Positions 3,928-39,431 are shown, counted from the first letter of the stretch. The stretch is 64,000 bases of DNA from Bacteroidales bacterium (GCA_045627385.1 JAZQNO010000025.1:81997-145996); one strand, 5' to 3'. The notes: a model not told the origin generated them from the letters alone. Numbers and translations are program-made.

Positions 3928-3935
3928 TACTTTTG
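3928..3935 (+). promoter_or_regulatory. -7 box TACTTTTG for the 4014-14195 operon
   Basis: It matches TAnnTTTG and lies about 79 nt upstream of the ATG at 4014, inside an AT-rich 290-bp divergent intergenic region. Confidence 0.4.
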
Positions 3936-4013: not shown

Positions 4014-5276
4014 ATGAAGGATATTTTTGAAAGAATTGCAGCCACACCGGGTCCACTCGGTCAGTACAAAGGAAATGCCGACGGCTATTTCATGTTCCCC
4101 AAACTCGAAGGTGAAATCGGACCGCACATGCGTTTCAACGGTAAGGACGTTCTTGTCTGGAGTCTCAACAACTATCTGGGTCTGGCCAACCGGCCCGAGG
4201 TCCGTGAAGCTGATGCACAAGGTGCCATTAAATATGGTATGGCTTCTCCCATGGGTGCCCGAATGATGTCGGGCGACACGGTCTACCACAAGAAACTCGA
4301 ACAGGATCTGGCCGATTTCGTAGGCAAGGAAGCCGGTTATCTGGTCAATTTCGGCTACCAGGCCATGATTTCCATCATCGACTGTCTGGTCAGCCGTCAC
4401 GACGTCATCGTATACGATTCCGAATCTCACGCCTGCATCATGGACGGCCTTCGCGTCGTGCTGGCCAAGCGTTTCATGTATATGCACAACGATATGGACA
4501 GCCTGCGCAAGCAGTTGCAGTCAGCTGCAGCTTTGGCTGAAAAGCAGGGCGGCGGTATCTTGGTCATCACCGAAGGTGTGTTCGGCATGGCCGGCGACTT
4601 GGGAAAACTCGATGAAATCGTAGCTCTTAAGAAGGAAGTACCCTTCCGCCTGCTCATCGACGACGCACACGGTTTCGGCACTATGGGCAAGACAGGTGCC
4701 GGTACTGGTGAACATTTCGGCGTGCAGGACGGTGTCGATGTCTATTTCGCCACTTTCGCCAAGAGTATGGCCGGTATCGGCGGTTTCGTCGCATCGCACC
4801 GCTATGTCATCGACAACCTCCGCTTCAACATGCGTTCCCAGATCTTCGCTAAATCACTACCTATGCCAATGGTGCTGGGCGCCCAGAAACGTCTCGACCT
4901 CATCAAGGCACAGCCCGAAATCCGCGAGCATCTTTGGGCAATCGTCAAAAAGCTTCAGAGCGGTCTCAAGGAACTCGGTTTCGACCTTGGCAACACCAAT
5001 TCGCCTGTCACTCCCGTCTATCTGAAGGGCGAGATGAACGTAGCCACCAACTTGGTCGTCGATCTCCGCGAAAACTACAACATCTTCTGTTCCATCACGG
5101 TCTATCCTGTGGTTCCGAAGGGCATCATTATGTTGCGCATCATTCCGACAGCCGCCCACAGCTTCGAAGATGTCGACTATACCCTCAAGACTTTCGCCAC
5201 CATCAAGAAAAAATACGACAATGGCGAATACGACAAGGAAATGCCCAATATGAACCTCATCAATAAGGAAGCCTGA
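4014..5276 (+). CDS. PLP-dependent alpha-oxoamine synthase, cysteate-C-fatty-acyltransferase-like (SulA/CapB type; could alternatively be a serine palmitoyltransferase)
   Basis: 420-aa ORF of the AONS/SPT/KBL family, with the PLP-lysine block ATFAKSMAGIGGF and DDAHGFG. Its stop overlaps the start of a cysteate-synthase-like gene (TGATG at 5274-5278). Confidence 0.75.
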   Translation: MKDIFERIAATPGPLGQYKGNADGYFMFPKLEGEIGPHMRFNGKDVLVWSLNNYLGLANRPEVREADAQGAIKYGMASPMGARMMSGDTVYHKKLEQDLADFVGKEAGYLVNFGYQAMISIIDCLVSRHDVIVYDSESHACIMDGLRVVLAKRFMYMHNDMDSLRKQLQSAAALAEKQGGGILVITEGVFGMAGDLGKLDEIVALKKEVPFRLLIDDAHGFGTMGKTGAGTGEHFGVQDGVDVYFATFAKSMAGIGGFVASHRYVIDNLRFNMRSQIFAKSLPMPMVLGAQKRLDLIKAQPEIREHLWAIVKKLQSGLKELGFDLGNTNSPVTPVYLKGEMNVATNLVVDLRENYNIFCSITVYPVVPKGIIMLRIIPTAAHSFEDVDYTLKTFATIKKKYDNGEYDKEMPNMNLINKEA

Positions 5277-6502
5277 TGAACTACGTGATCCGCTGTCCGA
5301 AATGCGGTCGGGCCATCGAGTCCTTCGCCGAGTGGTTTTCGCTCGGCCAGGCCTGTCCCGACTGCGGCTGCAAGCAGGGTGAAATCGAATATGCAGCCGA
5401 CTATTCCCGTCTGCCCGACTATTTCAAGGGCAATCCCGAGAGTTTCTGGCATTATTTCGAGTTCCTTCCTCTGCAGCATAAGGAAAACATCGTCAGTTTC
5501 GGTGAAGGTGCCATTCCCATTGAAGAATGGGATTTTCTGGAGCGTTTTGCTGAAGAAAAATACGGTGTCAGCTGCAAGGTCAATGTCTATCGCAACGATC
5601 TGAACGGCGGCACGCACACCTTCAAGGACATCGCCGCCTCGCTGGCCGCCTCGCTCTTCAAGGAAAACGGAATCAAGGAATTCTGTGTGGCCTCGACGGG
5701 CAACACGGCTACCGCCTACAGCAAGTATCTGGCCAAGGCGGGTGTCCATTTCACGGTATTTGTTCCGAACGATGTCTGCCCCGATTCTGTGGCCGAAATG
5801 CGTTCCTACGGACAGACTGTCGTCATCTCTAAGGGCAATTACGCCCAAGCCAAAAAGGAAGCCGCCGATTTCAGCTCCTCCAACAAGGTGCTGATTTCGG
5901 CCGGCAATATCGATCCCATCCGAGTGGAGGCCAAACGCACCATGGTGTTCGAGTATCTGCGACAGTTGGGAAAAATGCCGGACATGTATTTCCAGGCTGT
6001 TGCCGGCGGTACAGGCCCCATCGCCCTTTACAAAGGATATCGCGAACTCAGGAAAACCGATCCGTCGCTGAAATTGCCTCGTATGGTGCTGGTTCAGCAG
6101 GATTTGTGCGACCCCATGGTTCAGGGCTGGGAGCGTGCCGTACGGGAAGGCTTCCCCAATGGATACGAAAAGAATTATCCCGTTATCGAGGAACCCAAGA
6201 CAAAGATCTCGATTCTTTCGACGGGCAATCCGGGCATGTTCCCGATCATTGCGCCCATCGTCAGGGAAAGCGGCGGCACTTTCGTGCGCGTCGCCGAGTC
6301 TGAACTGGTCCGTCTGGGCCGTTGGGTGCTCGATGAAAAAGGCGTTCTGCTGGGTCCCGCTTCCATCGTCTGTCTGGCCGGTTTCTGCCAGGCATTGGAA
6401 GAAGGTCTGGTGGCCGACGGACAGACCGTTCTGCTCAATACGGGCGAGGGCTGCGGCCGCAACCGGGTATTCGGAGATGCAGTGAAGGCCTTCAAGGCTT
6501 GA
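5276..6502 (+). CDS. threonine-synthase-fold PLP enzyme, cysteate synthase-like (CapA type)
   Basis: 408-aa ORF with an N-terminal Cys4 ribbon (CPKCG...CPDCG), the PLP-lysine block GGTHTFKDIAAS and the STGNTATAY block. It is translationally coupled to the acyltransferase upstream. Confidence 0.7.
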   Translation: MNYVIRCPKCGRAIESFAEWFSLGQACPDCGCKQGEIEYAADYSRLPDYFKGNPESFWHYFEFLPLQHKENIVSFGEGAIPIEEWDFLERFAEEKYGVSCKVNVYRNDLNGGTHTFKDIAASLAASLFKENGIKEFCVASTGNTATAYSKYLAKAGVHFTVFVPNDVCPDSVAEMRSYGQTVVISKGNYAQAKKEAADFSSSNKVLISAGNIDPIRVEAKRTMVFEYLRQLGKMPDMYFQAVAGGTGPIALYKGYRELRKTDPSLKLPRMVLVQQDLCDPMVQGWERAVREGFPNGYEKNYPVIEEPKTKISILSTGNPGMFPIIAPIVRESGGTFVRVAESELVRLGRWVLDEKGVLLGPASIVCLAGFCQALEEGLVADGQTVLLNTGEGCGRNRVFGDAVKAFKA

Positions 6503-6505
6503 CAT

Positions 6506-7183
6506 ATGGGTAACCTGTACAATCTGATTGCTGAAGACGAACGTTTTGACGAATGTCTGAAAGCGTGCATGAACTGCGGCATGTGCACGGCCGTCTGTCC
6601 GGCGGCCGAGTTCTACCGTTACGATCCGAGACGCATTTGTGACATTGTCCAAAGACGCAACGAAGACGAAATCGAGAAGCTTCTCCGCAGCGATACCATC
6701 TGGTACTGCGGCCAGTGCATGTCGTGCAAGCCGCGTTGCCCGCGGGGCAACGCGCCGGGCGTGTTGATCTCCATTCTGCGCAAGGTCTCCCAGCACTTGG
6801 GTTATTTCGCTGAAAGCGAGAAGGGCAGACAGCAGTTTGCCCTGAAGGAAACGGTCGCCAAGAACATCCTCGACATCGGCTATTGTGTCCATCCCGACAG
6901 AGTGGATCCCGCGCTTCACCCCGAACAAGGTCCCATCTGGGAGTGGTATCTGGAGCACATCGAGGACGTGGCGCCTAAGATGGGCGCCAACTACCACGGC
7001 GACGGACCCGGTGCTTTGCGCAACATCCGAGAGGAAAACCTGCAGGAAGTGCGGCGTATCTTCGAAGCCACCGGCGGCAAGCGTCTGCTGGAGGAAATCG
7101 ACGCCTTCACGCGTAAGGAGACCGGCATATCGGACAGCGGAGAGCTGTTCCACAAGACTTTCACTGAAAATACCTCCGAATGA
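6506..7183 (+). CDS. HdrC-like 2x[4Fe-4S] ferredoxin subunit
   Basis: 225 aa with CMNCGMCTAVCP and CGQCMSCKPRCP. It starts 3 nt after the previous stop. Confidence 0.8.
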   Translation: MGNLYNLIAEDERFDECLKACMNCGMCTAVCPAAEFYRYDPRRICDIVQRRNEDEIEKLLRSDTIWYCGQCMSCKPRCPRGNAPGVLISILRKVSQHLGYFAESEKGRQQFALKETVAKNILDIGYCVHPDRVDPALHPEQGPIWEWYLEHIEDVAPKMGANYHGDGPGALRNIREENLQEVRRIFEATGGKRLLEEIDAFTRKETGISDSGELFHKTFTENTSE

Positions 7184-8232
7184 AAAGATACTGGAACGAA
7201 TATCAGAAAGAAATCGCTGACGACCATTATTTTTATGAGCGCAGCTGTATCCGCCAGACCTTCTTTCCCGGTTCGGAAGCCGCTTTTCTGCGCATTCTCA
7301 AGGATGAACTCGGCAAGGATGTCAAGGACGAGATGAACCAGCACACCTGTACGGGAATCGGTTATCATGCCGATGTGGTGCCTTTCGAGACGACGATGAC
7401 CGTTGTGGCGCGTCTCTTCTCGCTGATGACCGAGGACGGCTACGAAAATTATGTGCCTTCCTGCGTGACATCGTTCGGCATTTTCACCGAAATCGTGGAG
7501 ACTTGGAAGGAAAAGCCCGAACTGTTGGAGAAAGCGCGTCGGATTCTGCGTGAAACGACGGGGCGCGAATTCCAGATACCCAAAAACATCGCCCATCCTT
7601 CTGACATCATCTACAAATTCCGTTTCGAACTGAAATCCAAGATGAAATATCAGCTGGTAAACCGTTTCACGGGCAAGCCGCTGAAGGTGGTCGAGCACAT
7701 CGGATGCCACTATGCCAAGATTTTCCCCAAACATGGGGTGGGCAACGCCGAGTTCCCATACGTTCTGGCCGGAATGATTGAAGCTTGGGGCGGGGAAGTG
7801 GTCGATTATCCCGAACGCCGTCATTGCTGCGGCTTCGGTTTCCGCCAGTATCTGGTCCAGGCCAACCGCGGCTATTCGGTGGCCAACACCAAAAAGAAAT
7901 TCGAATCCATGCAGCCCTACGAGCCCGACTTCATTGTGGCCAACTGTCCCGGTTGCGCTCTGTTTCTCGACAAATGGCAGTATACCATCGCCGAGATGGA
8001 GAACAAAACCTACGACAAGGAAGGTTACGGCATTCCGGTGTTGACCTATGAGGAAATGGCTGGCCTGCTGCTGGGCTACGACCCTTGGGAACTGGGACTC
8101 CAGCTGCATCAGGTGCAGTCGGAGCGCTTGCTCGACAAAATCGGCATTCCCTACAACAAAAACGAGAAGTACAAAGGCGTTTCCGGTAAGGTTCTTCCAC
8201 TTCCAGACCGCCCTCAACACCTGAAGGTATGA
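7180..8232 (+). CDS. HdrB-like CCG-domain subunit
   Basis: 350 aa with Cys-rich CCG-type blocks (IGCHYAK, RRHCCGFGF, ANCPGCALF). It has an ATGA overlap with the hdrC-like gene. Confidence 0.8.
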   Translation: MKRYWNEYQKEIADDHYFYERSCIRQTFFPGSEAAFLRILKDELGKDVKDEMNQHTCTGIGYHADVVPFETTMTVVARLFSLMTEDGYENYVPSCVTSFGIFTEIVETWKEKPELLEKARRILRETTGREFQIPKNIAHPSDIIYKFRFELKSKMKYQLVNRFTGKPLKVVEHIGCHYAKIFPKHGVGNAEFPYVLAGMIEAWGGEVVDYPERRHCCGFGFRQYLVQANRGYSVANTKKKFESMQPYEPDFIVANCPGCALFLDKWQYTIAEMENKTYDKEGYGIPVLTYEEMAGLLLGYDPWELGLQLHQVQSERLLDKIGIPYNKNEKYKGVSGKVLPLPDRPQHLKV

Positions 8233-9335
8233 AACAAGAAGACAAGAAGGCATCCAAAAAGATTCGACTGATTCCCAAGGGACTCAGCCGCCGTTTTTCC
8301 CGGACCGAAACCCAAGAGGTGCCGGCCCAGGTGGCCATTGTCGGCGGTGGACCTGCCGGTATGGAGGCTGCCAGCGTGCTGGCCCGCGAAGGCTGTCAGG
8401 TGCTGCTTTTCGAAGCCCGGCATGACCTGGCCGAAAACATTTTGAACAAACATCGTCTGTTTCCCGATTTTTCCACTTCCAACGAATTGTCATACAGGCT
8501 GATATCCGGCCTTGACAATCCTTTGGTCAAAGTGTTGCCCGATACGGAAATCGTGCATGTGGCCAAGATGGATGTGGGCGATTGGTGCCTGACCGACAAC
8601 AAGGGTGAAAAATATCATGTGGCCGCTGTGCTGCTGGCTTCCGGTTATCAGGTCTTCGATGCCCGCCGCAAAGAGGAACTGGGTTACGGCATCTATCCCG
8701 GCGTGATGACCTCGCTGGAACTGGAGTCCTGCCTGAAGGAACACCGGCTGCTCACTCCGCTCCGTGAAGATCCGAAACGCATTGTATTTCTGCAATGTGT
8801 GGGCTCCCGCGATGAAAAAGTGGGCAACAACTACTGCTCGAAAGTATGCTGTGTGACGGCTGTCAAACAGGCCATAGAGGCCAAGAGACTGCTGCCCGAC
8901 GCCGAAGTGTACCTCTTTTACATGGACCTCCGCATGTGGGGCAAAGGTTTCGAAGAGCTCTACCGCAGCGCTCAGGAACAGTACAACATCCGTTTCGTGC
9001 GCGGCCGCATTTCCGAGGCATCCGGAACCTTCGACAACAAGATTCAGATAAAGGCCGAAGATACCTTGTTGGGACAGCCGCTCAAACTGATTGCCGATCT
9101 GCTGGTGCTGATGGTGGGCATGGAACCTTCCTGCGGCACGCGCAATCTGGCCCAGTGTTGCGGCATTTCGGGCGATTACGGCTTTGTCCGTACGGCCGGT
9201 CCCCATCTGGACGACAATCTGACCGGCGAGCAGGGCCTTTTCGTGGCCGGTACCTGCAAGCGCCCGATGACCATTCAGGACACCATTCACGATGCCCGTT
9301 CGGCCGCTTTGGAAATCATCAACTACCTGTCATAA
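8229..9335 (+). CDS. short HdrA-like FAD/Fe-S flavoprotein
   Basis: 368 aa with VAIVGGGPAGMEAAS (FAD fold) and the CSKVCCVTA motif typical of HdrA. It has an ATGA overlap with the hdrB-like gene. Confidence 0.8.
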   Translation: MKQEDKKASKKIRLIPKGLSRRFSRTETQEVPAQVAIVGGGPAGMEAASVLAREGCQVLLFEARHDLAENILNKHRLFPDFSTSNELSYRLISGLDNPLVKVLPDTEIVHVAKMDVGDWCLTDNKGEKYHVAAVLLASGYQVFDARRKEELGYGIYPGVMTSLELESCLKEHRLLTPLREDPKRIVFLQCVGSRDEKVGNNYCSKVCCVTAVKQAIEAKRLLPDAEVYLFYMDLRMWGKGFEELYRSAQEQYNIRFVRGRISEASGTFDNKIQIKAEDTLLGQPLKLIADLLVLMVGMEPSCGTRNLAQCCGISGDYGFVRTAGPHLDDNLTGEQGLFVAGTCKRPMTIQDTIHDARSAALEIINYLS

Positions 9336-9341
9336 GCGAGT

Positions 9342-9668
9342 ATGCCCGATTTCGGATTCAAAATATCGAAACCACGCAGCATCGAGGTCAGCGAACCTGA
9401 CATCCGCATGCGGCAGTTGGAGGAAATGGAGCCCAGTCTCCGCCGCTGCATGAACTGCGGTTCGTGTGCGGCCACCTGCTCGGCCGGACAGTTCGTCGAA
9501 TTCAACATCCGCCGCATCCAGAACCTCTACCGTTGGGGACAGTATGCCCAACTGGAGGAAGAACTTCAGAAATGCATGCTGTGCGGAAAGTGTACGCTTG
9601 TCTGCCCGAGAGGCGTCAACCTCAGACATCTCATCATCAGCATGCGTGCCGTTTTAGCAGACAAATGA
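9342..9668 (+). CDS. small HdrC-like 2x[4Fe-4S] ferredoxin
   Basis: 108 aa with CMNCGSCAATC and CMLCGKCTLVCP. Confidence 0.8.
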   Translation: MPDFGFKISKPRSIEVSEPDIRMRQLEEMEPSLRRCMNCGSCAATCSAGQFVEFNIRRIQNLYRWGQYAQLEEELQKCMLCGKCTLVCPRGVNLRHLIISMRAVLADK

Positions 9669-9669
9669 T

Positions 9670-11448
9670 ATGAACCCCACCTTATACCATCCTTTCGTCT
9701 GGCCTTTCTGCATCGGAGTGGTGCTTTTGCTCGCCATTCTGGTCATCAAGTACACCCGCTGGATCAAAAGTCTTGACCGCCGGCAGAAGATGTTGGTGAA
9801 CAAACACTTCTTGAAGGGACTGTTCTTCCCGGCCATCTACGAAATGTTCATGGAAGGCCTGCTCCACCGCAAGGTGACGCGATTCCGCCGTCCGCTGGGC
9901 TATATGCACCGCAGCATTGCGCTGGGTTGGTTCCTGCTCATCAGTGTGGGCCTGGTCGAGACGCTGGTCAATTTCTGGGGCGAGCCTCATCCTTTCTGGA
10001 TCGGCATTTTCTACCGCTACTTCGTCCATGCCGACCGCACGGCTCTTTCTCCGGTTTTCGCCCAGGTGATGGACCTGCTGCTGATATACGTGCTCAGCGG
10101 TGTGGGCATGGCAGTGATGAAATCCCTGCATGCCGGCATGGTGGGCATGCGCAAAACGACCAAACTCCGTTTCCGCGACCAGGTGCTCCGCTATTCGCTC
10201 TGGTCCATTTTCCCATTGAGACTCCTGTCGGAGAGTGCTACGGCATGTTTGTACCATAACGGCGGTTTTCTGACACAAACGCTTGGAAATCAGATGAGCG
10301 AGGCGGCTGCATCCTTCCTGGAACTGCCTTGCTGGACGCTCTATTCCTTGGCCTTGGGCATTTTCTTCGCTCTGATGCCTTTCTCGCGCTATATGCACAT
10401 CTTCACCGAGCTGGTGCTGATTTTCTTCCGCAAGTACGGCGTGACGGAGAGCGCGGTTCCGACAGGCTATACCAAAATGGAACTGTCGGCTTGCTCGCGT
10501 TGCGGCATCTGCATACAGAACTGTCCGATGGACAAGGTGCTGGGTATCGACAACATCCAGCCGGTCTACTATTTGGCCGGCATGCGCGAAGGCACGGTCA
10601 AGAGCCTGATCGCCGAAAACTGCCTGATGTGCAACCAGTGCGTGGTCGACTGTCCCGTAGGATTGGACATCCAGTCGCTCCGACGTCTTGGCCGCGACAA
10701 GCATCAGCTCGACACACAGGACAATTACCATTATACCGACAATATCCGTTCCTTCAATGCCATCGGCCGTGTCGCCTATTTCGGCGGCTGTATGTCGCAT
10801 CTGACGCCGGGCATCACCGAATCGATGAAGGCCATTTTCGAAGCGGCGGGACAGAAGTATTGGATGATGGACGAAGACAAGACCATCTGCTGCGGACGCC
10901 CGCTGATGCAGCAGGGATTTTTCAAGCAGGCGGCCGAACTTCGTCGCAAGAACACCAATCTCATCATCGATTCGCGTTCCAAGACGCTGGTGACTTCTTG
11001 CCCTATCTGCTATCAGTCTTTCAAAAAGGAATACAATCTGCCGGTGAAGGTGATGCACCACACCGAATACATCGCGTTGCTCATCAGTCTGGGCAAACTC
11101 AAACTCCAGACTTCCGACCTGAAGGTGGCCTACCACGATCCCTGCGAACTGGGCCGCGGCTGCGGCATCTACGAGGAGCCCCGACAGGTGCTTTCTTCGG
11201 TGGCTCAGATGGTCAGCGTGCGTAAGGAACGCAAGGACAGCATCTGCTGCGGTTACAATTTGGGCAACACGCGCCTGACGGTGGACCAGCAGATGCAGTT
11301 GCGCGACGCTTCCTGGAAAAATCTGACGGCCAACCATCCCGATGTGGTGGCCACCGCCTGTCCGATGTGCAAGAAGGCCTTTGTCCACGGCAATGACCAT
11401 CCGGTGAAGGATATCGCCGAAATTGTGGCCCAACAACTCATCAAGTGA
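9670..11448 (+). CDS. membrane-anchored Fe-S oxidoreductase (multi-TM N-terminal domain + 2x[4Fe-4S] + two CCG domains; HdrD/DsrK/GlpC-like)
   Basis: 592 aa. The N-terminal ~260 aa are hydrophobic with several predicted helices. Downstream are CSRCGICIQNCP, CLMCNQCVVDCP, CCGRP, SCPICY, CCGYN and ACPMC. Confidence 0.8.
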   Translation: MNPTLYHPFVWPFCIGVVLLLAILVIKYTRWIKSLDRRQKMLVNKHFLKGLFFPAIYEMFMEGLLHRKVTRFRRPLGYMHRSIALGWFLLISVGLVETLVNFWGEPHPFWIGIFYRYFVHADRTALSPVFAQVMDLLLIYVLSGVGMAVMKSLHAGMVGMRKTTKLRFRDQVLRYSLWSIFPLRLLSESATACLYHNGGFLTQTLGNQMSEAAASFLELPCWTLYSLALGIFFALMPFSRYMHIFTELVLIFFRKYGVTESAVPTGYTKMELSACSRCGICIQNCPMDKVLGIDNIQPVYYLAGMREGTVKSLIAENCLMCNQCVVDCPVGLDIQSLRRLGRDKHQLDTQDNYHYTDNIRSFNAIGRVAYFGGCMSHLTPGITESMKAIFEAAGQKYWMMDEDKTICCGRPLMQQGFFKQAAELRRKNTNLIIDSRSKTLVTSCPICYQSFKKEYNLPVKVMHHTEYIALLISLGKLKLQTSDLKVAYHDPCELGRGCGIYEEPRQVLSSVAQMVSVRKERKDSICCGYNLGNTRLTVDQQMQLRDASWKNLTANHPDVVATACPMCKKAFVHGNDHPVKDIAEIVAQQLIK

Positions 11449-11451
11449 GCT

Positions 11452-12249
11452 ATGAAACGGCTGGATGGAAAGAATGTCGTCATCACCGGCGCCTCGTCGG
11501 GCATCGGATTGGCATTGGCCAAAGCCTTTGCCGGGCGCGGGGCCAATGTCCTGCTGGCCGCCCGTCGCGAAGACAAGTTGCGGGAAGCCTGCGAAGCAAT
11601 TGCCCGGATGGGTGCCGGCGGTCTCGTGACATACGAAACGGTGGATCTGGCCTCGGAAGAATCTGTTCGGAATCTGTCCGAAAGGCTGCTGAAACGTTTC
11701 GAAGGTCAGCGTCTCGACTATTTGGTCTTGAATGCCGGCATGTCGCAGCGGGCCTTGGCTTTGGACACCTCTTACGAAGTGGACCGCGAACTGATGCAGG
11801 TCAATTTCCTGTCGCCCGTTCTGCTGACCAAGTGTCTCAAACCTTTGTTGCTGTCGGGCTGCCGGCTGGCTGTGACCAGTTCCATTTCCGGCTTGTTCGG
11901 CTTTCCTCTCCGTTCGTCTTATTGCGCTTCCAAATCGGCTCTTTTGGGCTTTTTCGAGGCGCTGGAACTCGAATATCCCCCCATCGGCGTCACCTTCCTC
12001 ATCCCCGGACGCATTCAGACCGACATCAGTCTCAGCGCCCGTCTGGCCGATGGAAAGGCCTACGGACAGATGGATCCCGGCCAGGCCAACGGCATGAAGG
12101 TGGACCGTTGCGCGAAAATTGCTCTGAGAGCCATCCTGAAAGGTCGTCACCGCCGTCTGATCGGTGGAAGCGAACTCTTGATGGTGTATATCCGAAAATA
12201 CATTCCTTGTCTGTTTTACCGTCTGGCACGGAAAGTGTCAGCCAAATGA
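11452..12249 (+). CDS. SDR-family oxidoreductase (candidate 3-keto-capnine/ketosphinganine-type reductase, by context only)
   Basis: 265 aa with TGASSGIG and the YCASK catalytic YxxxK. It starts 3 nt after the previous gene. Confidence 0.85.
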   Translation: MKRLDGKNVVITGASSGIGLALAKAFAGRGANVLLAARREDKLREACEAIARMGAGGLVTYETVDLASEESVRNLSERLLKRFEGQRLDYLVLNAGMSQRALALDTSYEVDRELMQVNFLSPVLLTKCLKPLLLSGCRLAVTSSISGLFGFPLRSSYCASKSALLGFFEALELEYPPIGVTFLIPGRIQTDISLSARLADGKAYGQMDPGQANGMKVDRCAKIALRAILKGRHRRLIGGSELLMVYIRKYIPCLFYRLARKVSAK

Positions 12250-12258
12250 CCAAATACG

Positions 12259-13320
12259 ATGAAAGAAAAGATTATCAGTGGAATACAACAGGTAGGCATC
12301 GGTGTGGCCGATGTGATGGAGGCCATGGCCTGGTACAACCGCATCTTCGGTTTCGACGTGAAAGTCTTCGATGACGAAGGCGTTGCCGAACGCATGTTGC
12401 CCTATACAGCAGGAAAACCTCAGCCACGTCGGGCCATGCTGATGTACAATCTGCGCGGAGGCGGCGGTTTTGAAATATGGCAGCCCAAAGAACGCGAACT
12501 CAACTGGCCGGCCCAGGAAATTTCAGTGGGCGATCTCGGCATTTATGCCTGCAAAATCAAGTCGCCTGACATCTGTGCTTCTTTCAGCCATCTGAAGGCT
12601 GCCGGAGTGTCCATTCTGAATGAACCAATCAGAAACATCGAAGGAAGAATGCATTTCTATATGCGCGATCCTTACGGCAATCTCTTCGATATCGAAGAAG
12701 ACGATTTCGTGGCCGTTCCCGAAAAGAAAGCCTTCGGAGGCGTGAACGGCGTGCTGGTCGGCGTGTCCGACATGGAGCGCTCCATTGCTTTCTATTCGTC
12801 TCTTCTGGCCTACGACAGGGTGGTGGCCGACCGCAGCGGCATCTTCGAAGACCTGAAGGAACTTCCCGGCGGTCTGGGCCGCATGCGCCGCGTCGTGCTG
12901 CGCCCTTCCAAGGCTCCAGAAGGTCCCTTCAGCCAGCTGATGGGGCCCTCCTGCATCGAACTGATTCAGAGTCTCGACACCCAAGCTTCAAAAATATTTG
13001 AAAATCGGCTTTGGGGTGACCCGGGATTTATCCATCTTTGCTTCGACATACGCAACATGGAGTGCATCCGTCAGGAAGCGGAGGCGCTGGGCCATCCTTT
13101 CGTCTGCGACGGTGGGGCGGATTTCGACATGGGCGATGCCAACGGCCATTTCACTTATGTGGAAGATCCCGACGGAATGCTCATCGAATTTGTGGAGACC
13201 TTCAAAGTGCCCATTCTGAAAAAGTGGGGCCTGTACATACGTCTGGCCAAGCGGGACGATCGCAAACCGCTTCCTTTCTGGCTCATTAAAGCACTCCGGT
13301 TCATGCGCGTAAAACTTTGA
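12259..13320 (+). CDS. VOC (glyoxalase/bleomycin-resistance/dioxygenase fold) family protein, two-module
   Basis: 353 aa with two similar modules beginning GIQQVGIGVADVMEAMAWYNRIFGF and GVNGVLVGVSDMERSIAFYSSLLAY. Confidence 0.65.
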   Translation: MKEKIISGIQQVGIGVADVMEAMAWYNRIFGFDVKVFDDEGVAERMLPYTAGKPQPRRAMLMYNLRGGGGFEIWQPKERELNWPAQEISVGDLGIYACKIKSPDICASFSHLKAAGVSILNEPIRNIEGRMHFYMRDPYGNLFDIEEDDFVAVPEKKAFGGVNGVLVGVSDMERSIAFYSSLLAYDRVVADRSGIFEDLKELPGGLGRMRRVVLRPSKAPEGPFSQLMGPSCIELIQSLDTQASKIFENRLWGDPGFIHLCFDIRNMECIRQEAEALGHPFVCDGGADFDMGDANGHFTYVEDPDGMLIEFVETFKVPILKKWGLYIRLAKRDDRKPLPFWLIKALRFMRVKL

Positions 13321-14195
13321 TGATGAGGCTATTCAAAAAGATTTGTCTTGGGGTGCCACTGCTCTGGTGCCTGATGTCCTGCCAGTGTGAGAAGGCGTCC
13401 TTTGTTCCGACCGACAGCTATGCCCAAGTGCTCGAATATGCACGGAACGACGGCCGTTCCGTCCTCTTGCTGTTGTATGACCGCCATACGTCCAAACTCT
13501 CTCAGATAGAAAACTTCGTTTGGGGAGACGAACTCTTGGCCGCTGAGATTCAGGCAGACTTTCTTTGCGTTTCCGGACAGATCCACAGTGAAGCCTGGCG
13601 TCCCTTCTGCCAGGAAAAAGGCATATACAAAGGTCAGGTGCTGCTGTTTCTAAGTCCTGACGGTCAGATTGTCAACGACTTGAAACTGGAAAACGAAGCG
13701 GGTCCGGATGAGTCCGGACTGTCGGCCAGCCGCAAGCGGCTGGCCCGCCAGTGCCGTTTGGCCCAGGCCTTTGCAGAACCCGATGATTCCCTCTTTTTCT
13801 CCTCCGACAATTGGAAAGACATCAACGCCTCTATGCTGCGCATTGACGGGCTGCTTTTCCATCGCATCGTCCAGGCCAAGGAAATGCTGAAAGCCCGTTA
13901 TCCCGAAACCTATCCCATCGTGTTCGACTATGCCATGGCCTGTGCGGCCGTCTCTTTGGTCAGCCACGAAGAAGGACAGTTGCCCTATCTGGATCCGGCT
14001 CTCGACAAAGCCTATTATTATGTGGTCGACAGTATGGACATTGATTTTCAAGGCCGCTACCGCCTGTATGGAGACGTCAACAAAGCTTTCGGCCTGGGGC
14101 AATACGAAAAGGCCCGCCGTGTCGCACAGCAGGCCTTTGACAAGGGAGATATTCAAGAAAACGAGTTCCGCCAGCTGATGGCGAAACTGGAATAG
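13320..14195 (+). CDS. lipoprotein with thioredoxin-like N-terminal region (no CxxC), function unknown
   Basis: It has a signal peptide with lipobox LMSC. The ATG overlaps the VOC stop (TGATG). The track start at 13317 is a TTG. Confidence 0.7.
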   Translation: MMRLFKKICLGVPLLWCLMSCQCEKASFVPTDSYAQVLEYARNDGRSVLLLLYDRHTSKLSQIENFVWGDELLAAEIQADFLCVSGQIHSEAWRPFCQEKGIYKGQVLLFLSPDGQIVNDLKLENEAGPDESGLSASRKRLARQCRLAQAFAEPDDSLFFSSDNWKDINASMLRIDGLLFHRIVQAKEMLKARYPETYPIVFDYAMACAAVSLVSHEEGQLPYLDPALDKAYYYVVDSMDIDFQGRYRLYGDVNKAFGLGQYEKARRVAQQAFDKGDIQENEFRQLMAKLE

Positions 14196-15038
14196 TCACT
14201 TTTTCTTGCTCAGGGGCGAATCCGGCTCCTTCAGCATCATTTTGTACTCTGTACGTCGGGTCAGTCCGGGCATAGCCACCCGGAAGAAATTGACCGTAAT
14301 CTTCCCCAACGGTGTCAGCACCATCTGATTGCGCTTCTGACGCAGTCCGCGCAACATCAGTTGCGCGCACCTTTCGGCGCTCATCATCTTGTCTTCTTCG
14401 CGGGGCGTCTTGCCTTGGGGCGAGCCGTCGGCCGTGAGAGCGGCCAAACGGACATTGGAGGCTGTGAAGTTGGGCGCGAATGTCATGACGTGCAGCCCGT
14501 CATAGAGATGTTCGGCACGCAGCGTTTCCAGAAAACCGTTCAGCGCGAATTTCGATGAAGAATAGCCGGTGCGGCAGGGCAGACCTACAAAACCGGCAAC
14601 GGATGTCACGCCCACAATGGAGCCCTTGCTTTTCAGCAGTTCCGGCAGCGCATACTTGCAGCAGTAGACGCAACCCCAGAAATTCACGTCCATCAGCCGA
14701 TGCAGCACTGAGAGATCCACATCGTCGAAAGCGGCCCGCATCGAAACACCGGCATTGCAGATGAGAATGTCGATTTTTCCGAAACGCGACACGCAGGCTT
14801 CCATCAGCTTTTGGCAGTCCTCTTCGACGGAAACGTCGGTGGGGACGGCCAGCACTTCCGTGCAGCCTTCCTCCGCCAATTCCTGTTTCAGGGCTTCCAA
14901 TTTGTCTGCAGAACGCGCGGCAACCACCAGTTTGGCTCCACATGATGCGAACACTTTGGCCGTTGCCCGACCGATGCCCGAAGAGGCACCGGTGACAATG
15001 ACCACTTTGTCTTTAGGAGAATCAGAGACCTTTGCCAT
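14196..15038 (-). CDS. SDR-family oxidoreductase
   Basis: [11 protein letters not shown] and YSSSK are present. I prefer the ATG at 15036-15038 ([20 protein letters not shown]) over the track start at 15107. Its stop abuts the stop of the convergent lipoprotein gene with no spacer. Confidence 0.85.
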
Positions 15039-18000
15039 GACAGTTTTTGAATTTTTTACCGCTGCCGCAAGGACAAGGATCGTTGCGGCCCACTTTCTGC
15101 TCCACACGGACAGGCTCGAGTTTCTGTGGCTCGCGTTGTGCCTGAGGCGCTCCCGGCTGCTGACGTCCGAATTCGTCTTTTCGGGTCCGCAGCTGGCTGT
15201 AGTCGTTCCGGCGCTGTTCGGCGGCCTGTCTCACATGGTCGGGCTCCTGCGTGTTGATCTGTCCGTGCATCAGCACAGAAATGCTCTTGCGGTTCATGGA
15301 GTCGACCATATTCTTGAACAGATTGTATGATTCCAGTTTGTAAATGAGCAAGGGATCCTTCTGTTCGTAGCTGGCGTTCTGGACCGAGGTGCGCAAATCG
15401 TCCAATTCGCGCAGGTTCTCTTTCCAAGCCTCGTCCAGCATATGCAGCAGGATGGCTTTTTCGAAACTCTTGACCACGTCTTTCGAATGGCTTTCGGCGG
15501 CATCCTTCAGGTTGCAGGGAATCTGGTAGATGCGCTTTCCGTCCGAAATGGGCACGACGATGTTCTGGTAGCGGGCGCCTTCGCGTTCGTAGACCTGCTG
15601 GATGACCGGATCGGCGATGGCCGACATCTTTTCGGTCTTGCGCTTGTAGTTTTCCAGAGCCTGAGAAGTCAGGATTTCGGCGTTGTCGTCGGTGCGGTTC
15701 TTGAAGAATTCCTCGTCGCTGAAAGGCACTTCCATGGCGAAATACTTCATCATGTTGAACTTCAGACCTTCAAAATCCTTGGTGTCCTCGGCTTCTTCCA
15801 CCAGGCCGTGGATGGTGTCGTAGGTGGTGTTGGCGATTTCCATGCCGATGCGTTCGCCCATCACGGCGTGACGGCGCTTGGTGTAGATGACTTCGCGCTG
15901 GTTGTTCATCACGTCGTCGTATTCCAACAGACGTTTGCGGATGCCGAAGTTGTTTTCTTCGACCTTCTTCTGGGCGCGCTCGATGGCCTTGGAAATCATG
16001 GAGTTCTCAATCATCTCACCTTCTTCCAGTCCCATGCGGTCCATGATGGATGTGATGCGTTCGCTGCCGAACAGACGCATCAGGTTGTCCTGTAGGGAAA
16101 CATAGAACACCGACGAACCCGGGTCGCCCTGACGTCCGCTTCGTCCGCGCAGCTGGCGGTCGACACGGCGGCTTTCGTGGCGTTCGGTACCGATGATGGC
16201 CAGACCGCCCAGTTCCTTCACTTCGGGCGTGAGTTTGATGTCGGTACCGCGGCCTGCCATGTTGGTGGCAATGGTTACGGTGCCCTTCTCGCCGGCGTGC
16301 GCGACGATTTCGGCTTCGCGCTGGTGCAACTTGGCGTTCAGCACGTTGTGCTTGATCTTGCGCTGGGTGAGCATGCGGCTCAACAGTTCGGATATCTCCA
16401 CCGAAGTGGTGCCGACCAGTACCGGACGCCCTTCGGCGTTGAGGCGTTCGATTTCCTCGATGATGGCTTTGTATTTCTCACGCTGTGTCTTGTAGAGACG
16501 GTCGTCCATGTCGACACGGGCGATGGGGCGGTTGGTGGGAATGACGACGACGTCGAGCTTGTAGATGTCCCAAAACTCGCCGGCTTCCGTTTCGGCCGTA
16601 CCGGTCATGCCCGACAGCTTGTGATACATGCGGAAGTAGTTCTGCAGCGTGATGGTGGCGAAGGTCTGGGTGGCCGCTTCCACTTTGACACGTTCCTTGG
16701 CTTCGATGGCCTGGTGCAGTCCGTCGCTGTAGCGGCGGCCTTCCATAATGCGGCCCGTCTGCTCGTCCACAATCTTCACCTGGTTGTCGATGACCACGTA
16801 TTCGTCGTCGCGGTCAAACAGACAGTAGGCTTTCAGCAGCTGGGTCACGGTGTGGATGCGGTCGCTCTTGATGGAGAAATTGTTGAGCAGCTCGTCCTTC
16901 TTGTTGAGCCTTTCCTCTTCGCTCAGCGGCTCGTTGTCGAGTTCGGCCAGCTGGGCCGCGATATCGGGAATGACGAAGAATTCGGGGTCTTCCGTATCGC
17001 CGGTGATGAAATCCACACCCTTGTCGGTGAGCTCGATGGTGCGGTTCTTCTCGTCGATGACGAAATACAGCGGATCGGTGACCACATGCATCTCCTGGTT
17101 GTTGTTCTGCATATAGAACTCTTCGGTCTTCTGCATGCTGGCCTTGATGCCCTGTTCGCTCAGGAATTTGATGAGCGCCTTGTTTTTGGGCATGGCCTTG
17201 TGGCTGCGGTAAAGCAGCAGGGAACCTTCCTGCTGTTCCTTGGGGTCCTCACTGGACATCTTCTTCTTGGCTTCCACCAGCAGTTTGGTGGCCATTTCGC
17301 GTTGCACGTTCACGACGCGTTCCACTTTGGGACGGTATTCTTCGAACAGCTGGTCTTCGCCTTTCGGCACGGGACCTGAAATAATCAGAGGCGTACGGGC
17401 GTCGTCGATGAGCACCGAGTCGACCTCGTCCACGATGGCGTAGTTGTGGCGGCGCTGCACCAGGTCGAGCGGGCTGCCGGCCATATTGTCACGCAGATAG
17501 TCGAAACCGAATTCGTTGTTGGTGCCGAAGGTGATGTCGGCCATATAGGCCTGACGGCGTTCTTCGCTGTTGGGGCGGTATTTGTCGATGCAGTCGACGC
17601 TCAGTCCGTGGAACATATAGAGCGGTCCCATCCACTCGGAGTCACGTTTCGACAGGTAATCGTTGACGGTCACCACATGGACGCCGTTGCCGGTGAGGGC
17701 GTTCAGGAAAACGGGCAGGGTAGCCACCAGCGTCTTTCCTTCACCGGTGGCCATTTCGGCGATTTTGCCCTGATGCAGGACGACGCCGCCGAAAAGCTGC
17801 ACATCGTAGTGGACCATATCCCATTTGATTTCGTTGCCGCCGGCAATCCAATGGTTCTGCCAGATGGCCTTGTCGCCTTCGATGCGCACGAAATCGTGTC
17901 GGGCGGCCAGGTCACGGTCAAACTGGGTGGCCGTCACTTCGACAAATTCGTTCTCGGCGAAACGGCGGGCTGTGTCTTTGACAATGGAGAAAACCTCCGG

Positions 18001-26053: not shown

Positions 26054-27589
26054 ATGTCGACGAAGAAGATCCTTCTGTTTATCCTTGCCTGCCTTCTTTT
26101 GTTGGGTGGACTGGCGTACTTTTTCCCTTCGGACGGCATCAGCGTAGGTAAGTTTCATCTGAGTTTTCCATCTCTCAAGGAGGTCCTGACTCCTTCTTCG
26201 GGCGAAAAGGACCTGGCCATCGTCACTCCAGACGACCATCTCCAGCGGATGGAGGAGGCCTTTTATTGGAAGAACCTTTCCGATCTGGCCGATTCTTTGG
26301 ACTATTACGGGAACTTTTTCAAGGAAAGCGACGTCAGGATAGAATTTCCCGACAACGACCCTTCTTTGTTCGATTCGCTTTTCATCCGGCTCGAAAGAGC
26401 GTCGGAAGGGAAGGGAACCGTACATGTGGTGCACTATGGAGATTCGCAGATCGAACAGGACCGTCTGACCGCCACTTTCCGCCGTTCCTGGCAAGACTTG
26501 TTCGGAGGTTCCGGTCCGGGCCTCGTGCCTGCCATCCAACCCATTCCCACACCGACCATATCGCAGTCGTACAGCGGCAACTGGCAGCGATCGCTCGTAT
26601 ACGGCCCCGCTTCAGGAAGAGCTTCTCATCGGCGCTACGGGCCATTGGGCGCGGTCTGCACCTTGGCCGATACCGGGCAGATTGTCGTGGGGCCGCGCTA
26701 CCCCAATCAGCCCGATCCCGTCAAGCGCTTTTCGCATGTCCGTCTGCTGATAGGGCAGCAGAGCGCCGATTTTCAGGCTCAGCTGACGGCCGGCCATTTC
26801 CGTCAGACGCGTCACACCCAAGGGCAGAACAGCCGTTTGGAAGTGCTGGAATGGCAACTTCCGACCGCCCAGCAGCGGGTTCAGCTCCGCATGAGCGGCT
26901 CGGCCGAAATCTACGGCCTCATTCTGGAAGATTCCACGGGCGTGTCGGTCGACAACGTGCCGATGCGCGGCTGCTCGGGCACGGTGTTCACCCGCATCGA
27001 CAAGGCTTTGTTGAAAGCCGTTTACGAAGAGATGGACGTGGCGCTGTTCATCCTGCAGTTCGGCGGCAACCGGGTGCCGATCATCCATTCGGAAAAAGAC
27101 ATCGCCTCTTATGTGGCCAATTTGGAAAAACAGATTCTGATGTTTCAGGAACTGCTTCCCGACGCCGCCATTCTTTTCATAGGACCGGCCGACATGTCGG
27201 TCAGCATCGATGGACAGAAACAGACCTATCCGATGCTGGAGCCGACTATCGAGGCCATCCGCCGGCTTTGTCTGGACAACGGAGTGGCGTTCTGGGACAT
27301 GTACCACGTGATGGGCGGTCACAATTCGATGTTGCAGTGGGTCAAGGCCCAACCGCAGCTGGCCGCCTCCGACTACACGCATTTCACCGTGAAGGGCGCG
27401 CGCCGCATGGCATCGTTGCTGGACGAGAGCCTTTCGGTCTGCTACGACCGTTTCCGTCTTTGCTCTCAGATTGACACGCTGATGTGGCAAGACATCGGCC
27501 ATCTCGACCGCGAACACGACTATCGTGCCGATTATGAGCGGGAAAAAGAATACGCCATCCAGGTGATGGAAGCCACAGACCGGCCATGA
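26054..27589 (+). CDS. membrane-anchored SGNH/GDSL-like hydrolase/acyltransferase (AlgJ/PatB-like partner of the MBOAT)
   Basis: 511 aa with a single N-terminal TM helix and the GDS block VHYGDSQIE. It has a 4-nt overlap with the MBOAT gene. Confidence 0.7.
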   Translation: MSTKKILLFILACLLLLGGLAYFFPSDGISVGKFHLSFPSLKEVLTPSSGEKDLAIVTPDDHLQRMEEAFYWKNLSDLADSLDYYGNFFKESDVRIEFPDNDPSLFDSLFIRLERASEGKGTVHVVHYGDSQIEQDRLTATFRRSWQDLFGGSGPGLVPAIQPIPTPTISQSYSGNWQRSLVYGPASGRASHRRYGPLGAVCTLADTGQIVVGPRYPNQPDPVKRFSHVRLLIGQQSADFQAQLTAGHFRQTRHTQGQNSRLEVLEWQLPTAQQRVQLRMSGSAEIYGLILEDSTGVSVDNVPMRGCSGTVFTRIDKALLKAVYEEMDVALFILQFGGNRVPIIHSEKDIASYVANLEKQILMFQELLPDAAILFIGPADMSVSIDGQKQTYPMLEPTIEAIRRLCLDNGVAFWDMYHVMGGHNSMLQWVKAQPQLAASDYTHFTVKGARRMASLLDESLSVCYDRFRLCSQIDTLMWQDIGHLDREHDYRADYEREKEYAIQVMEATDRP

Positions 27590-37977: not shown

Positions 37978-39418
37978 TACCAACATCCTCAAGACCCTCG
38001 ATTATCAGGTCTTGCTGATCTATCTGGTCCTGGTCTTCTGGGGCTGGCTGACCATTTACAGCGCCAGTTACAACTACGACAGCGCTCAGATTTTCAGCCA
38101 GTCGCTCGTTTCAGGCAAGCAGTTCGTTTGGATTGCCATCAGCCTGCTGGCCGGTTTCGTGCTGCTGATTGTCGACTCGCGCTGGTATTTCGATATAGCT
38201 GGTTTTCTTTACGTCTTGGTCATGTTCGTGCTGTTGGTGACGGCTTTGGTCGCACCCGACATCAAAGGCTCGCGCAGTTGGCTGGTACTCGGACCGATAC
38301 GCATACAACCGGCCGAGTTCGCCAAGTTCGCAACGGCGCTGGCGCTGGCCAAATGCATCAGCAAGCGCGGTTTCAGCGGGAAAAGTCTGCGTCAGGATTT
38401 CCTGTCGTTCCTGATCATCCTCCTGCCGATGGCCCTCATCGTCATGGAGAAGGAAACCGGCTCGGCATTGGTCTATGTGGCCCTGTTGCTGGTCCTCTAC
38501 CGCGAAGGCATGCCGGGCGGCATCCTGTTGGCCGGTGTGTGCGCAGTCGCCTATTTCATCGTGGGCATCCGATTCGGCAGCCAGGCCATTTTAGGCCAGA
38601 CCAGTCTGGGCCTCTTCATCTGTCTGCTTTTGGTCGAAATACTCACACTGGCCATTTTCGCCTGGTTCAACGCCAAAGAACGCCCGACCATGAAGTGGCT
38701 CGCCCTGTCGTTTCTGGGGGCCCTTCTGTTGGCGGCTCTGGTCTGCCAGTTGATACGTCCTTTCGACCTGTGCTATGTGCTTCTGGCCGAACTGGCGGTC
38801 GTTTTCGCCTACATTTTCATGGGGACCTTCAAACGCCCGCTCCAGAAAGCATGGATCTGTCTGCTGTTTCTCGTGGGTTCGGTCGGCTTCATCTATGCGA
38901 CCGATTACGTGTTCGACCACCTGGCGCCCCATCAGCAGGCGCGCATTCAGGTGCTGCTGGGCGTCATCGACGATCCGAGCGGTGTGGGCTACAATGTCAA
39001 TCAGGCCAAAATATCCATCGGTTCGGGCGGTTTTCACGGAAAAGGCTATCTGAACGGCACTCAGACCAAACTCAAATATGTGCCCGAGCAGAATACCGAC
39101 TTCATCTTCTGCACCATCGGCGAGGAGCTCGGCTTTGCGGGCGCGCTGGTGCTCATCTTCCTGTATGTGTATCTGCAGTGCCGCATCATCCTTATGGCCG
39201 AACGTCAGCGCAACCGCTTCGTCCGCGTCTACGGCTATTGCGTCTCCAGCATATTCTTCTTCCATTTTCTCATCAATCTGGGAATGGTGCTTGGTATTAT
39301 GCCGGTCATTGGCATACCTTTGCCTTTCTTCAGCTACGGAGGTTCGTCCTTGCTCGGATTCACCATACTGCTGTTCATCTTCCTGAGAATGGATGCCGAC
39401 CGTTTCCGATACAATTAA
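37955..39418 (+). CDS. rodA: SEDS-family peptidoglycan polymerase RodA
   Basis: 487 aa, polytopic, with FtsW/RodA/SpoVE blocks (PEQNTDFIFCTIGEELGF, PFFSYGGSS). Confidence 0.9.
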   Translation: MSNLSRNSTNILKTLDYQVLLIYLVLVFWGWLTIYSASYNYDSAQIFSQSLVSGKQFVWIAISLLAGFVLLIVDSRWYFDIAGFLYVLVMFVLLVTALVAPDIKGSRSWLVLGPIRIQPAEFAKFATALALAKCISKRGFSGKSLRQDFLSFLIILLPMALIVMEKETGSALVYVALLLVLYREGMPGGILLAGVCAVAYFIVGIRFGSQAILGQTSLGLFICLLLVEILTLAIFAWFNAKERPTMKWLALSFLGALLLAALVCQLIRPFDLCYVLLAELAVVFAYIFMGTFKRPLQKAWICLLFLVGSVGFIYATDYVFDHLAPHQQARIQVLLGVIDDPSGVGYNVNQAKISIGSGGFHGKGYLNGTQTKLKYVPEQNTDFIFCTIGEELGFAGALVLIFLYVYLQCRIILMAERQRNRFVRVYGYCVSSIFFFHFLINLGMVLGIMPVIGIPLPFFSYGGSSLLGFTILLFIFLRMDADRFRYN

Positions 39419-39431
39419 AAATGTCCTAGAT

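Follow-up and report, generated by a model that had tools for sequence, protein, structure and literature searches.

In a 64,000-nucleotide (nt) stretch of DNA from an uncultured gut Bacteroidales bacterium (GCA_045627385.1, JAZQNO010000025.1:81997-145996; the 64-kb window hereafter, whose coordinates are used throughout), five genes for heterodisulfide reductase (Hdr)-like proteins lie within a cluster of sulfonolipid biosynthesis genes. They are best explained, although this is not proven, as a membrane-anchored relative of the sHdr complexes of sulfur oxidizers that was recruited as a supply module for the sulfonolipid head group. In its fuller form, the proposal is that cysteate synthase receives its sulfite from an sHdr variant that is linked to menaquinone and independent of LbpA; we give this slightly less than an even chance. 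Since a sulfite-consuming enzyme would here stand beside a relative of a sulfite-forming complex, sulfite supply is the most economical reading of the locus.

Ten consecutive open reading frames (ORFs) occupy positions 4014-14195 on the + strand, in the order SulA, Cys, HdrC1, HdrB1, HdrA, HdrC2, HdrMD, SDR, Glx, and P292 (Table 1; HdrMD, Glx, and P292 are names given in this analysis); no two neighbors overlap by more than 4 nt (ATGA) or stand more than 9 nt apart. SulA and Cys overlap by 1 nt, and Cys is separated from HdrC1 by 3 nt; ATGA overlaps join HdrC1 to HdrB1 and HdrB1 to HdrA; the gaps are 6 nt between HdrA and HdrC2, 1 nt between HdrC2 and HdrMD, 3 nt between HdrMD and SDR, and 9 nt between SDR and Glx, which overlaps P292 by 4 nt. 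The hdr genes are inserted between cys and the SDR gene, and the gaps that border them are no longer than 9 nt. When ORFs and junctions were rechecked, the five Hdr-like genes lay where the first-pass annotation had placed them, joined as it described; its account of gene content and operon-like packing also held, with the tight spacing extending to both sides of the hdr genes. Chance ORFs can be ruled out because of the domain E values and because the same gene set is kept in 80 other genomes. A terminator scan found no hairpins within the cluster above shuffled expectation, a sigma-70 promoter scan of the window gave background levels, and an Rfam scan of the window returned one tRNA and nothing else. 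By their spacing, the ten genes appear to form an operon-like cluster.

Table 1. Predicted genes of the cluster and the promoter-like motif upstream of it
Feature	Position	Strand	Characteristics
Bacteroidetes-type -7 promoter motif TAnnTTTG (TACTTTTG)	3928..3935	+	Pattern match only, 79 nt 5' of sulA
SulA/CFAT, cysteate acyl-ACP (fatty acyl) transferase	4014..5276	+	PDB 7u7h, E 2.9e-190, 68% identity
Cys, cysteate-synthase-like pyridoxal phosphate (PLP) enzyme	5276..6502	+	PF00291; threonine-synthase fold, N-terminal 4-Cys ribbon
HdrC1-like di-[4Fe-4S] ferredoxin	6506..7183	+	Two CxxCxxCxxxCP motifs; best NCBIfam matches are HdrC models, E 1.9e-22
HdrB1, sHdrB1-type; degenerate N-terminal and complete C-terminal CCG domain	7180..8232	+	HdrB models, E 6.9e-43
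HdrA, short HdrA-like flavoprotein (FAD plus one [4Fe-4S])	8229..9335	+	368 amino acids; CSKVCC at residues 203-208
HdrC2-like small di-[4Fe-4S] ferredoxin	9342..9668	+	108 amino acids; eight invariant Cys
HdrMD, membrane/two [4Fe-4S]/two CCG protein	9670..11448	+	592 amino acids; EMO/HdrDE-like architecture
SDR, candidate 3-ketocapnine reductase	11452..12249	+	PF00106; accompanies SulA-Cys in most arrangements
Glx, two-domain VOC/glyoxalase-fold protein	12259..13320	+	Sole invariant cysteine is C261
P292, lipoprotein-like ORF	13317..14195	+	292 amino acids; without Pfam or NCBIfam match

An alignment of the HdrA clade, searched against one genome per species, returned 557 related stretches. 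We fetched the best 80 of these and searched their six-frame ORFs with the ten window proteins; the counts given here rest on 81 distinct loci. All of the best 80 come from metagenome-assembled genomes (MAGs) of uncultured Bacteroidales/Bacteroidia, mostly from rumen, hindgut, and digesters, and encode HdrA proteins with 53 to 65% identity to that of the window. The complete five-gene module is present at 50 loci. SulA and/or Cys lies 0 to 7.3 kb from the Hdr genes at 27 of the 81 loci and accompanies 17 of the 31 complete modules that have at least 9 kb on both flanks; the neighborhood co-occurrence of Hdr-like genes with cysteate synthase, proposed as a check in the first-pass annotation, is thus positive within this HdrA-defined clade. 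About ten arrangements occur, on the same or opposite strand, upstream or downstream, and 0 to 7.3 kb apart. They include SulA-Cys-C1-B1-A-C2-MD(-SDR-Glx), as in the window; SulA-Cys-SDR-Glx-C1-C2-MD-B1-A; Glx-C1-C2-MD-B1-A followed by an opposite-strand SDR-Cys-SulA at varying distance; Cys-SDR and Glx-C1...A separated by a 3- to 4-kb insertion; and Glx-C1...A-SulA-Cys. That SulA-Cys linkage has outlasted so many rearrangements argues for selection or a functional tie, and we regard it as good evidence that the Hdr module and SulA/Cys are functionally linked.

Because the related genomes are all MAGs, we considered that the synteny might be coincidental or an assembly artifact. This is hardly credible: assemblies made independently, in many studies and from many hosts, show the linkage, on contigs of up to 1.39 Mb; operon and window do not differ in GC content (0.547 versus 0.550); and the cofactor-binding residues are all invariant, so the genes are under purifying selection. 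When all neighboring ORFs in the loci were clustered, no further conserved partner emerged, the clusters consisting of housekeeping genes (TatC/TatA, oxaloacetate-decarboxylase-like, YidC, and KdsC) and antisense shadow ORFs. The recurring 3- to 4-kb insertion between Cys-SDR and Glx-Hdr (L021, L034, L055, L061, L032, L043, and L056; ~1 to 4.9 kb in locus coordinates) contains oxaloacetate-decarboxylase-alpha-like and TatC/TatA-like genes and probably represents housekeeping genes.

No protein of the cluster is better conserved than HdrB1, in keeping with a catalytic role; across species, the identity of HdrB1 (77 to 87%) is much higher than that of HdrA (53 to 65%). The N-terminal CCG site of HdrB1 has three cysteines instead of five in 66 of 66 sequences, with xCT..YH in place of the CC motif and CxTSFG in place of CxxC, and its C-terminal domain carries CCGFGFR, as does that of canonical sHdrB1. 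The full pattern is common to HdrB1 and sHdrB1 but not to methanogen HdrB, sHdrB2, or HdrMD, whose N-terminal domains have CC(G/P) and CxxC. Overall scores fail to separate the two possible affiliations (112 bits for sHdrB1, at 27% identity, versus 112 to 115 bits for methanogen HdrB). A search of 1.84 billion representative proteins found full-length HdrB1 relatives, the higher-scoring of which nearly all carry CxTS[FY]G (P0401 and P0416 are the exceptions); classical CNGC-type HdrB proteins appeared only at lower scores. In a neighbor-joining tree (no bootstrap), the HdrB1 proteins of Bacteroidales form the sister group of the one to which canonical sHdrB1 belongs. Motifs and tree together place HdrB1 with the sHdrB1-type catalytic subunits; in a system that oxidizes sulfane sulfur to sulfite, catalysis has been proposed to take place on sHdrB1 (bioRxiv 10.1101/2023.12.18.572138). 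The nearest relatives from outside the clade (P0376, P0379, P0403, and P0409) lie on contigs of 1.5 to 3.7 kb, whose neighborhoods are uninformative. One of them, P0379, is 48% identical to HdrB1 and is encoded 3' of an HdrC1-like gene and a small Nitro_FeMo-Co gene (L087, 1213-3424, on a 3.7-kb metagenome contig), a different setting for the same HdrB1 type.

The other soluble subunits also have counterparts in sHdr. The alignment of HdrA with 6tjr, a structure of the short sHdrA, covers its whole length (E 1.8e-52; full-length identity to sHdrA, 31%), whereas in methanogen HdrA chains, of 643 to 671 amino acids, HdrA has a match only in the core. Its only invariant cysteines are C190, C203, C207, and C208, and it has the makeup of a short HdrA: FAD (flavin adenine dinucleotide), a single [4Fe-4S] cluster, and no ferredoxin domains. 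Positions 8229-8330 encode ~33 N-terminal residues more than are found in most homologs (335 amino acids); the ATGA overlap with HdrB1 favors this long HdrA start, a downstream start being possible. HdrC1 is 33% identical to sHdrC1 of the Hyphomicrobium type (E 2.5e-29), and its eight cluster cysteines are invariant in 49 sequences.

HdrMD begins with at least four strongly hydrophobic segments, or about five helices, within residues 1-260, followed by an HdrC-like domain with two 4-Cys cubane motifs and then two complete CCG domains. The residues that do not vary among 53 sequences include three membrane histidines (H66, H80, and H243), the eight cysteines of the cubane motifs, and the full set of ten non-cubane cysteines. 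The best PDB match is 9ojn (M. smegmatis EMO/EtfD; E 2.4e-17), which covers the soluble domains, and NCBIfam searches returned TfrB (E 3.8e-30) and DsrK (E 3.8e-15); we saw no specific likeness to sHdrB2. The membrane domain had no significant family match in Pfam and no significant sequence match, and a single-sequence AlphaFold2 model had a pLDDT (predicted local distance difference test) of only 39.5. In the EMO/HdrDE layout, five membrane helices are combined with an HdrC-like and a non-cubane cluster domain (bioRxiv 10.64898/2026.08.18.745454); together with the 9ojn match, this resemblance is consistent with the earlier suggestion that HdrMD is a quinone-linked membrane subunit.

The same architecture could serve a reaction in the opposite direction. 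Working like HdrDE or DsrMK, HdrMD might use menaquinol electrons to cleave an S-S bond (candidate substrates are thiosulfate, an S-sulfonate such as S-sulfocysteine, and tetrathionate) and release sulfite to cysteate synthase. Such reductive release would explain the co-localization with Cys equally well; HdrMD keeps ten catalytic-type cysteines, whereas EMO has lost part of its site (bioRxiv 10.64898/2026.08.18.745454), and its layout matches that of quinol- or methanophenazine-dependent disulfide or trisulfide reductases, as the DsrK and TfrB matches attest. However, HdrB1 is of the sulfur-oxidizer sHdrB1 type, a plain quinol:disulfide reductase would have no use for HdrA, HdrB1, and a further two ferredoxins, and no rhodanese or thiosulfate-handling gene is linked to the module in the window or loci. 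We therefore judge reductive release distinctly unlikely.

The sulfonolipid genes define what the module might supply. The structure matched by window SulA, PDB 7u7h, is that of Alistipes finegoldii SulA, which has been characterized biochemically and structurally. Lys281 of SulA replaces an alanine of Spt and separates SulA from serine palmitoyltransferases (PMC9304779); the window protein carries the motif AKSLPMP, in which the SulA-specific lysine is K280. With this diagnostic lysine and its match to the AOS-family fold, it belongs to SulA/CFAT and is a clear ortholog of the cysteate-specific A. finegoldii enzyme; the pathway therefore needs cysteate. Cys adjoins SulA at every locus where both turned up, and the FKDRG motif of threonine synthases is replaced in Cys, as it is in the solved cysteate synthase 9k3c. 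Enzymes shown to form cysteate in Bacteroidota reportedly take phosphoserine and sulfite. L-Phosphoserine is converted into sulfobacin B, and the pathway steps described are Cys, CFAT/SulA, and KCR (PMC11211663). A second SDR gene, on the - strand at 14196-15107 (adh_short, E 4e-53), is transcribed toward the end of the operon and may encode a further ketoreductase of the pathway or be unrelated.

In the mechanism that we propose, reduced sulfur, as sulfide-derived sulfane sulfur or a small persulfide, would be oxidized to sulfite at the sHdrB1-type Fe-S site of HdrB1. Electrons would pass through HdrC1, the FAD and [4Fe-4S] cluster of HdrA, HdrC2, and the cubane and non-cubane clusters of HdrMD, and would reach menaquinone through the putative haem-b-type membrane domain of HdrMD; menaquinol could then be reoxidized by anaerobic respiration, for example, fumarate reduction. 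The adjacent cysteate-synthase-like enzyme would combine sulfite with phosphoserine to give cysteate, which SulA would condense with acyl-ACP (acyl carrier protein) to 3-ketocapnine, and SDR would reduce this to capnine. In this scheme we infer which substrate is used, which way the electrons flow, that sulfite is formed, and whatever role the VOC protein may have. That the complex is an LbpA-independent, directly menaquinone-coupled sHdr-type enzyme, able to oxidize sulfur to sulfite without oxygen for biosynthesis, seems to us possible but somewhat doubtful.

Observations of several kinds, on gene content, similarity scores, energetics, and linkage, weigh against sulfite supply by an sHdr variant. 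Our reference was the Hyphomicrobium-type sHdr locus, DsrE3-C1-B1-A-H-C2-B2-hyp-LbpA, with genes for TusA, SoxT, and lipoate maturation nearby. LbpA is essential in Hyphomicrobium. It has been called "inevitably associated" with sHdr (PMC6067878), and sulfurtransferases together with LbpA are described as constant companions of sHdr (PMC6067878; bioRxiv 10.1101/2023.12.18.572138). Yet homologs of sHdrH, the 156-amino-acid hypothetical protein, LbpA, DsrE3, and TusA were found neither in the window nor at 83 loci, in a search that covered the 64-kb window and ~1.4 Mb of related loci, with both blastp and phmmer used for LbpA; nor does any window gene encode a TusA-, DsrE3-, or rhodanese-type Pfam domain. 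sHdr systems are defined by a syntenic C1B1AHC2B2 (type I) or C1B1AHB3-etfAB (type II) core (bioRxiv 10.1101/2023.12.18.572138). With this core incomplete and the companions absent, the module is not, on gene content, a canonical sHdr system; what we retain is the type of its catalytic subunit and the idea of an EMO-like exit for electrons. Since the lipoate-binding protein and the sulfur-relay machinery are lacking, its chemistry must differ in detail from current sHdr models. The core of HdrA is 43% identical to methanogen HdrA versus 34% to sHdrA, so that the complex looks like a mosaic, in which HdrB1 groups with sHdrB1 and the HdrA core lies nearer methanogen HdrA. The sHdr resemblance noted in the first-pass annotation thus survives for HdrB1 and for the short form of HdrA, but it does not extend to the companion genes or the affinities of the HdrA core. 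Gene order, also cited there as sHdr-like, is weakened as evidence: C1-B1-A-C2 is a minority arrangement seen in the window and six loci only, most relatives having C1-C2-MD-B1-A.

The identity of Cys is a further difficulty. Its match to the cysteate synthase model TIGR03844 (cysteate_syn) is full length but scores 114.6 bits, below the 324.9-bit cutoff, and in PDB searches threonine synthases (E 4e-29) outscore cysteate synthase 9k3c (E 2.3e-12); for these reasons its assignment as a cysteate synthase comes mainly from gene context and is unproven. As for energetics, oxidation of sulfane sulfur to sulfite with menaquinone is approximately thermoneutral to slightly uphill by our estimate from textbook potentials, and would need to be pulled by removal of the product.

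Linkage, finally, is incomplete. No SulA or Cys lies within 10 kb at 14 of the 31 complete modules with full flanks, and a further 14 loci have HdrA, or HdrB1-HdrA, separated from the genes for the remaining subunits. Among Alistipes-type loci, which we obtained through a homolog search with the A. finegoldii SulA sequence, three from Alistipes/Rikenellaceae (L084, L085, and L092, one of them labeled A. ihumii) encode SulA proteins 84 to 90% identical to that of A. finegoldii, and all three lack Cys, Hdr, or Glx genes within 10 kb of sulA. Gut sulfonolipid producers therefore do not generally require the module. Among the 120 best HdrA homologs, no Alistipes name appears, nor a membership as large as is usual for human-gut Alistipes proteins; this is only suggestive of the absence of the HdrA clade from Alistipes.

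Such gaps would be expected if the genes encoded a general sulfide/persulfide or thiol/disulfide:menaquinone module for energy, detoxification, or redox balance, whose proximity to sulfonolipid genes is regulatory or historical: about half of the complete modules stand without SulA/Cys within 10 kb, their subunits are scattered in some genomes, and Glx is linked to Hdr more often than SulA/Cys is (40 versus 24 of 50 complete modules). To our knowledge, moreover, the described sHdr systems are all dissimilatory. We nevertheless consider a general role unlikely. SulA-Cys linkage was re-created or retained in about ten arrangements, including the insertion between cys and SDR, where stop and start codons overlap; unlinked loci may hold SulA more than 10 kb away, distances of up to 7.3 kb having already been observed; and no other metabolic gene family is conserved beside the module.

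Glx, which adjoins or lies near the Hdr genes in the 40 modules just mentioned, is found directly 5' of HdrC1 in the commonest arrangement, a tighter linkage to Hdr than that of SulA. Its invariant cysteine falls within WGDPGFxxC.D, and the 41 homologs in the loci have no conserved His ligands; Glx is therefore not a standard metal VOC enzyme. These features leave some room for another redox step in the same pathway, either direct oxidation of a thiol to a sulfonate (for example, cysteine to cysteate) or a modification of the head group or lipid, possibly with the VOC protein. The chemistry proposed for sHdr does turn bound sulfur into oxidized S-O species, and the identity of the PLP enzyme as a sulfite-using cysteate synthase is, as noted, unproven. 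We find this idea very unlikely, however: no Hdr-type enzyme is known to us to oxidize a thiol to a sulfonate; the PLP enzyme matches cysteate synthase models over its full length and lacks FKDRG like the solved cysteate synthase; and Glx is missing from the SulA-Hdr clusters of L004, L005, L029, and L077. At one locus (L001, 5481-6050), a 189-amino-acid ORF without a Pfam match lies between Glx and HdrC1.

It is doubtful that P292 is part of the system; among the loci searched, only L005 has a homolog. Elsewhere in the window we found no gene for a sulfur carrier, lipoate, sulfate assimilation, or other sulfur metabolism, which counts in favor of the sulfite-supply reading. The remaining genes are for housekeeping and plant-fiber degradation; they include a pair encoding a GDSL hydrolase and an MBOAT acyltransferase (26054-29490), a pectinesterase/GDSL fusion (39393-41096), and a GH43 gene (46969-48447), which fit a plant-fiber-degrading gut Bacteroidales host.

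The first-pass annotation had been aware of no described link between Hdr-like complexes and sulfonolipid synthesis, and a full-text literature search bore this out, finding no paper that pairs sulfonolipid, capnine, or sulfobacin with heterodisulfide reductase or HdrA. What we rate as new is the predicted presence, within a lipid-biosynthesis operon of strict anaerobes, of an sHdr-related complex that lacks LbpA and has its EMO/HdrDE-like anchor fused in. We know of no explanation for the origin of the sulfonate sulfur of sulfonolipids in strict anaerobes. A module that makes sulfite from reduced sulfur would, if confirmed, close this gap in the pathway and explain the sulfite source for sulfonate lipids in strict anaerobes living on sulfide. 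It would also be the first assimilatory use of sHdr chemistry, extending it from dissimilation in aerobes and microaerobes to biosynthesis in fermentative gut anaerobes; show that it can run without the lipoate-binding protein now held essential; add a third sHdr architecture, with a single fused membrane protein for the B2/B3 and EMO functions; and provide a template for the same sulfite question in coenzyme M synthesis. Even without a role in sulfite formation, a tightly conserved and widespread complex of rumen and hindgut Bacteroidales (557 related stretches in the representative genomes scanned), linked to lipid head-group genes, is a defined experimental target. The lineages with stand-alone sulA, Alistipes/Rikenellaceae, are the best-studied gut sulfonolipid producers. 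Gut Bacteroidota sulfonolipids are immunologically active: they act on TLR4 and correlate with inflammatory bowel disease (PMC11525784).

Compared with sHdr type I (for example, that of Hyphomicrobium denitrificans), the module shares a short HdrA, HdrC1, HdrC2, an HdrB1 with the same ligand pattern, and, in the window, the order C1-B1-A-C2 followed by a protein with two classical CCG domains. It differs in that the window has no sHdrH, LbpA, lipoate-maturation, TusA/DsrE, or SoxT genes nearby; the B2 position is taken by a 592-amino-acid fusion to a ferredoxin domain and membrane anchor; identities are only 27 to 33%; and the context is biosynthetic, in a strict-anaerobe gut Bacteroidales. 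The main text of the cited survey of sHdr systems makes no mention of Bacteroidota (bioRxiv 10.1101/2023.12.18.572138). Type II (shdrC1B1AHB3-etfAB-emo) resembles the module in its fused ferredoxin and CCG protein and in its membrane-bound EMO, the proposed route for electrons from sulfur oxidation into menaquinone (bioRxiv 10.1101/2023.12.18.572138). Unlike type II, HdrMD joins B3-like and EMO-like parts and has two complete non-cubane sites; EtfAB and sHdrH are absent from the operon, none of whose ten genes encodes an ETF domain. EMO/EtfD (9OJN) has the three-part layout predicted for HdrMD, with helices to about residue 260 and three conserved membrane histidines, but its partner is ETF rather than Hdr flavoprotein and ferredoxins, all ten CCG cysteines are kept in HdrMD, and the position of H66 is off the EMO pattern.

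HdrDE (from Methanosarcina) and DsrMK (from sulfate reducers) are reductases, with CoM-S-S-CoB or the DsrC trisulfide as substrate. As is predicted for HdrMD, they have a b-type cytochrome part, an HdrD/DsrK-type subunit, and two cubane plus catalytic non-cubane clusters, and they are tied to the quinone or phenazine pool; here, in contrast, the parts are fused and accompanied by HdrA, HdrB1, and two HdrC-like proteins. Methanogen HdrABC differs in its long HdrA (~650 amino acids, with extra Fe-S domains) and two-site HdrB, neither of which we find in the module. A LutABC/GlcDEF-type 2-hydroxyacid (e.g., sulfolactate) dehydrogenase was rejected, as HdrB1 carries the sHdrB1 signature and the flavoprotein is of the HdrA type, not of a substrate-oxidizing FAD/FMN (flavin mononucleotide) dehydrogenase type. 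A Qmo-like complex was rejected too; AprAB is absent and there is no second HdrA-like subunit. As for the Cys-CFAT/SulA-KCR sulfonolipid pathway of Bacteroidota, SulA, the threonine synthase (ThrC)-fold enzyme, and SDR of the window would complete its three steps; whereas in A. finegoldii neither cfat nor Cys is clustered with the KCR genes (PMC11211663), here SDR lies in the operon.

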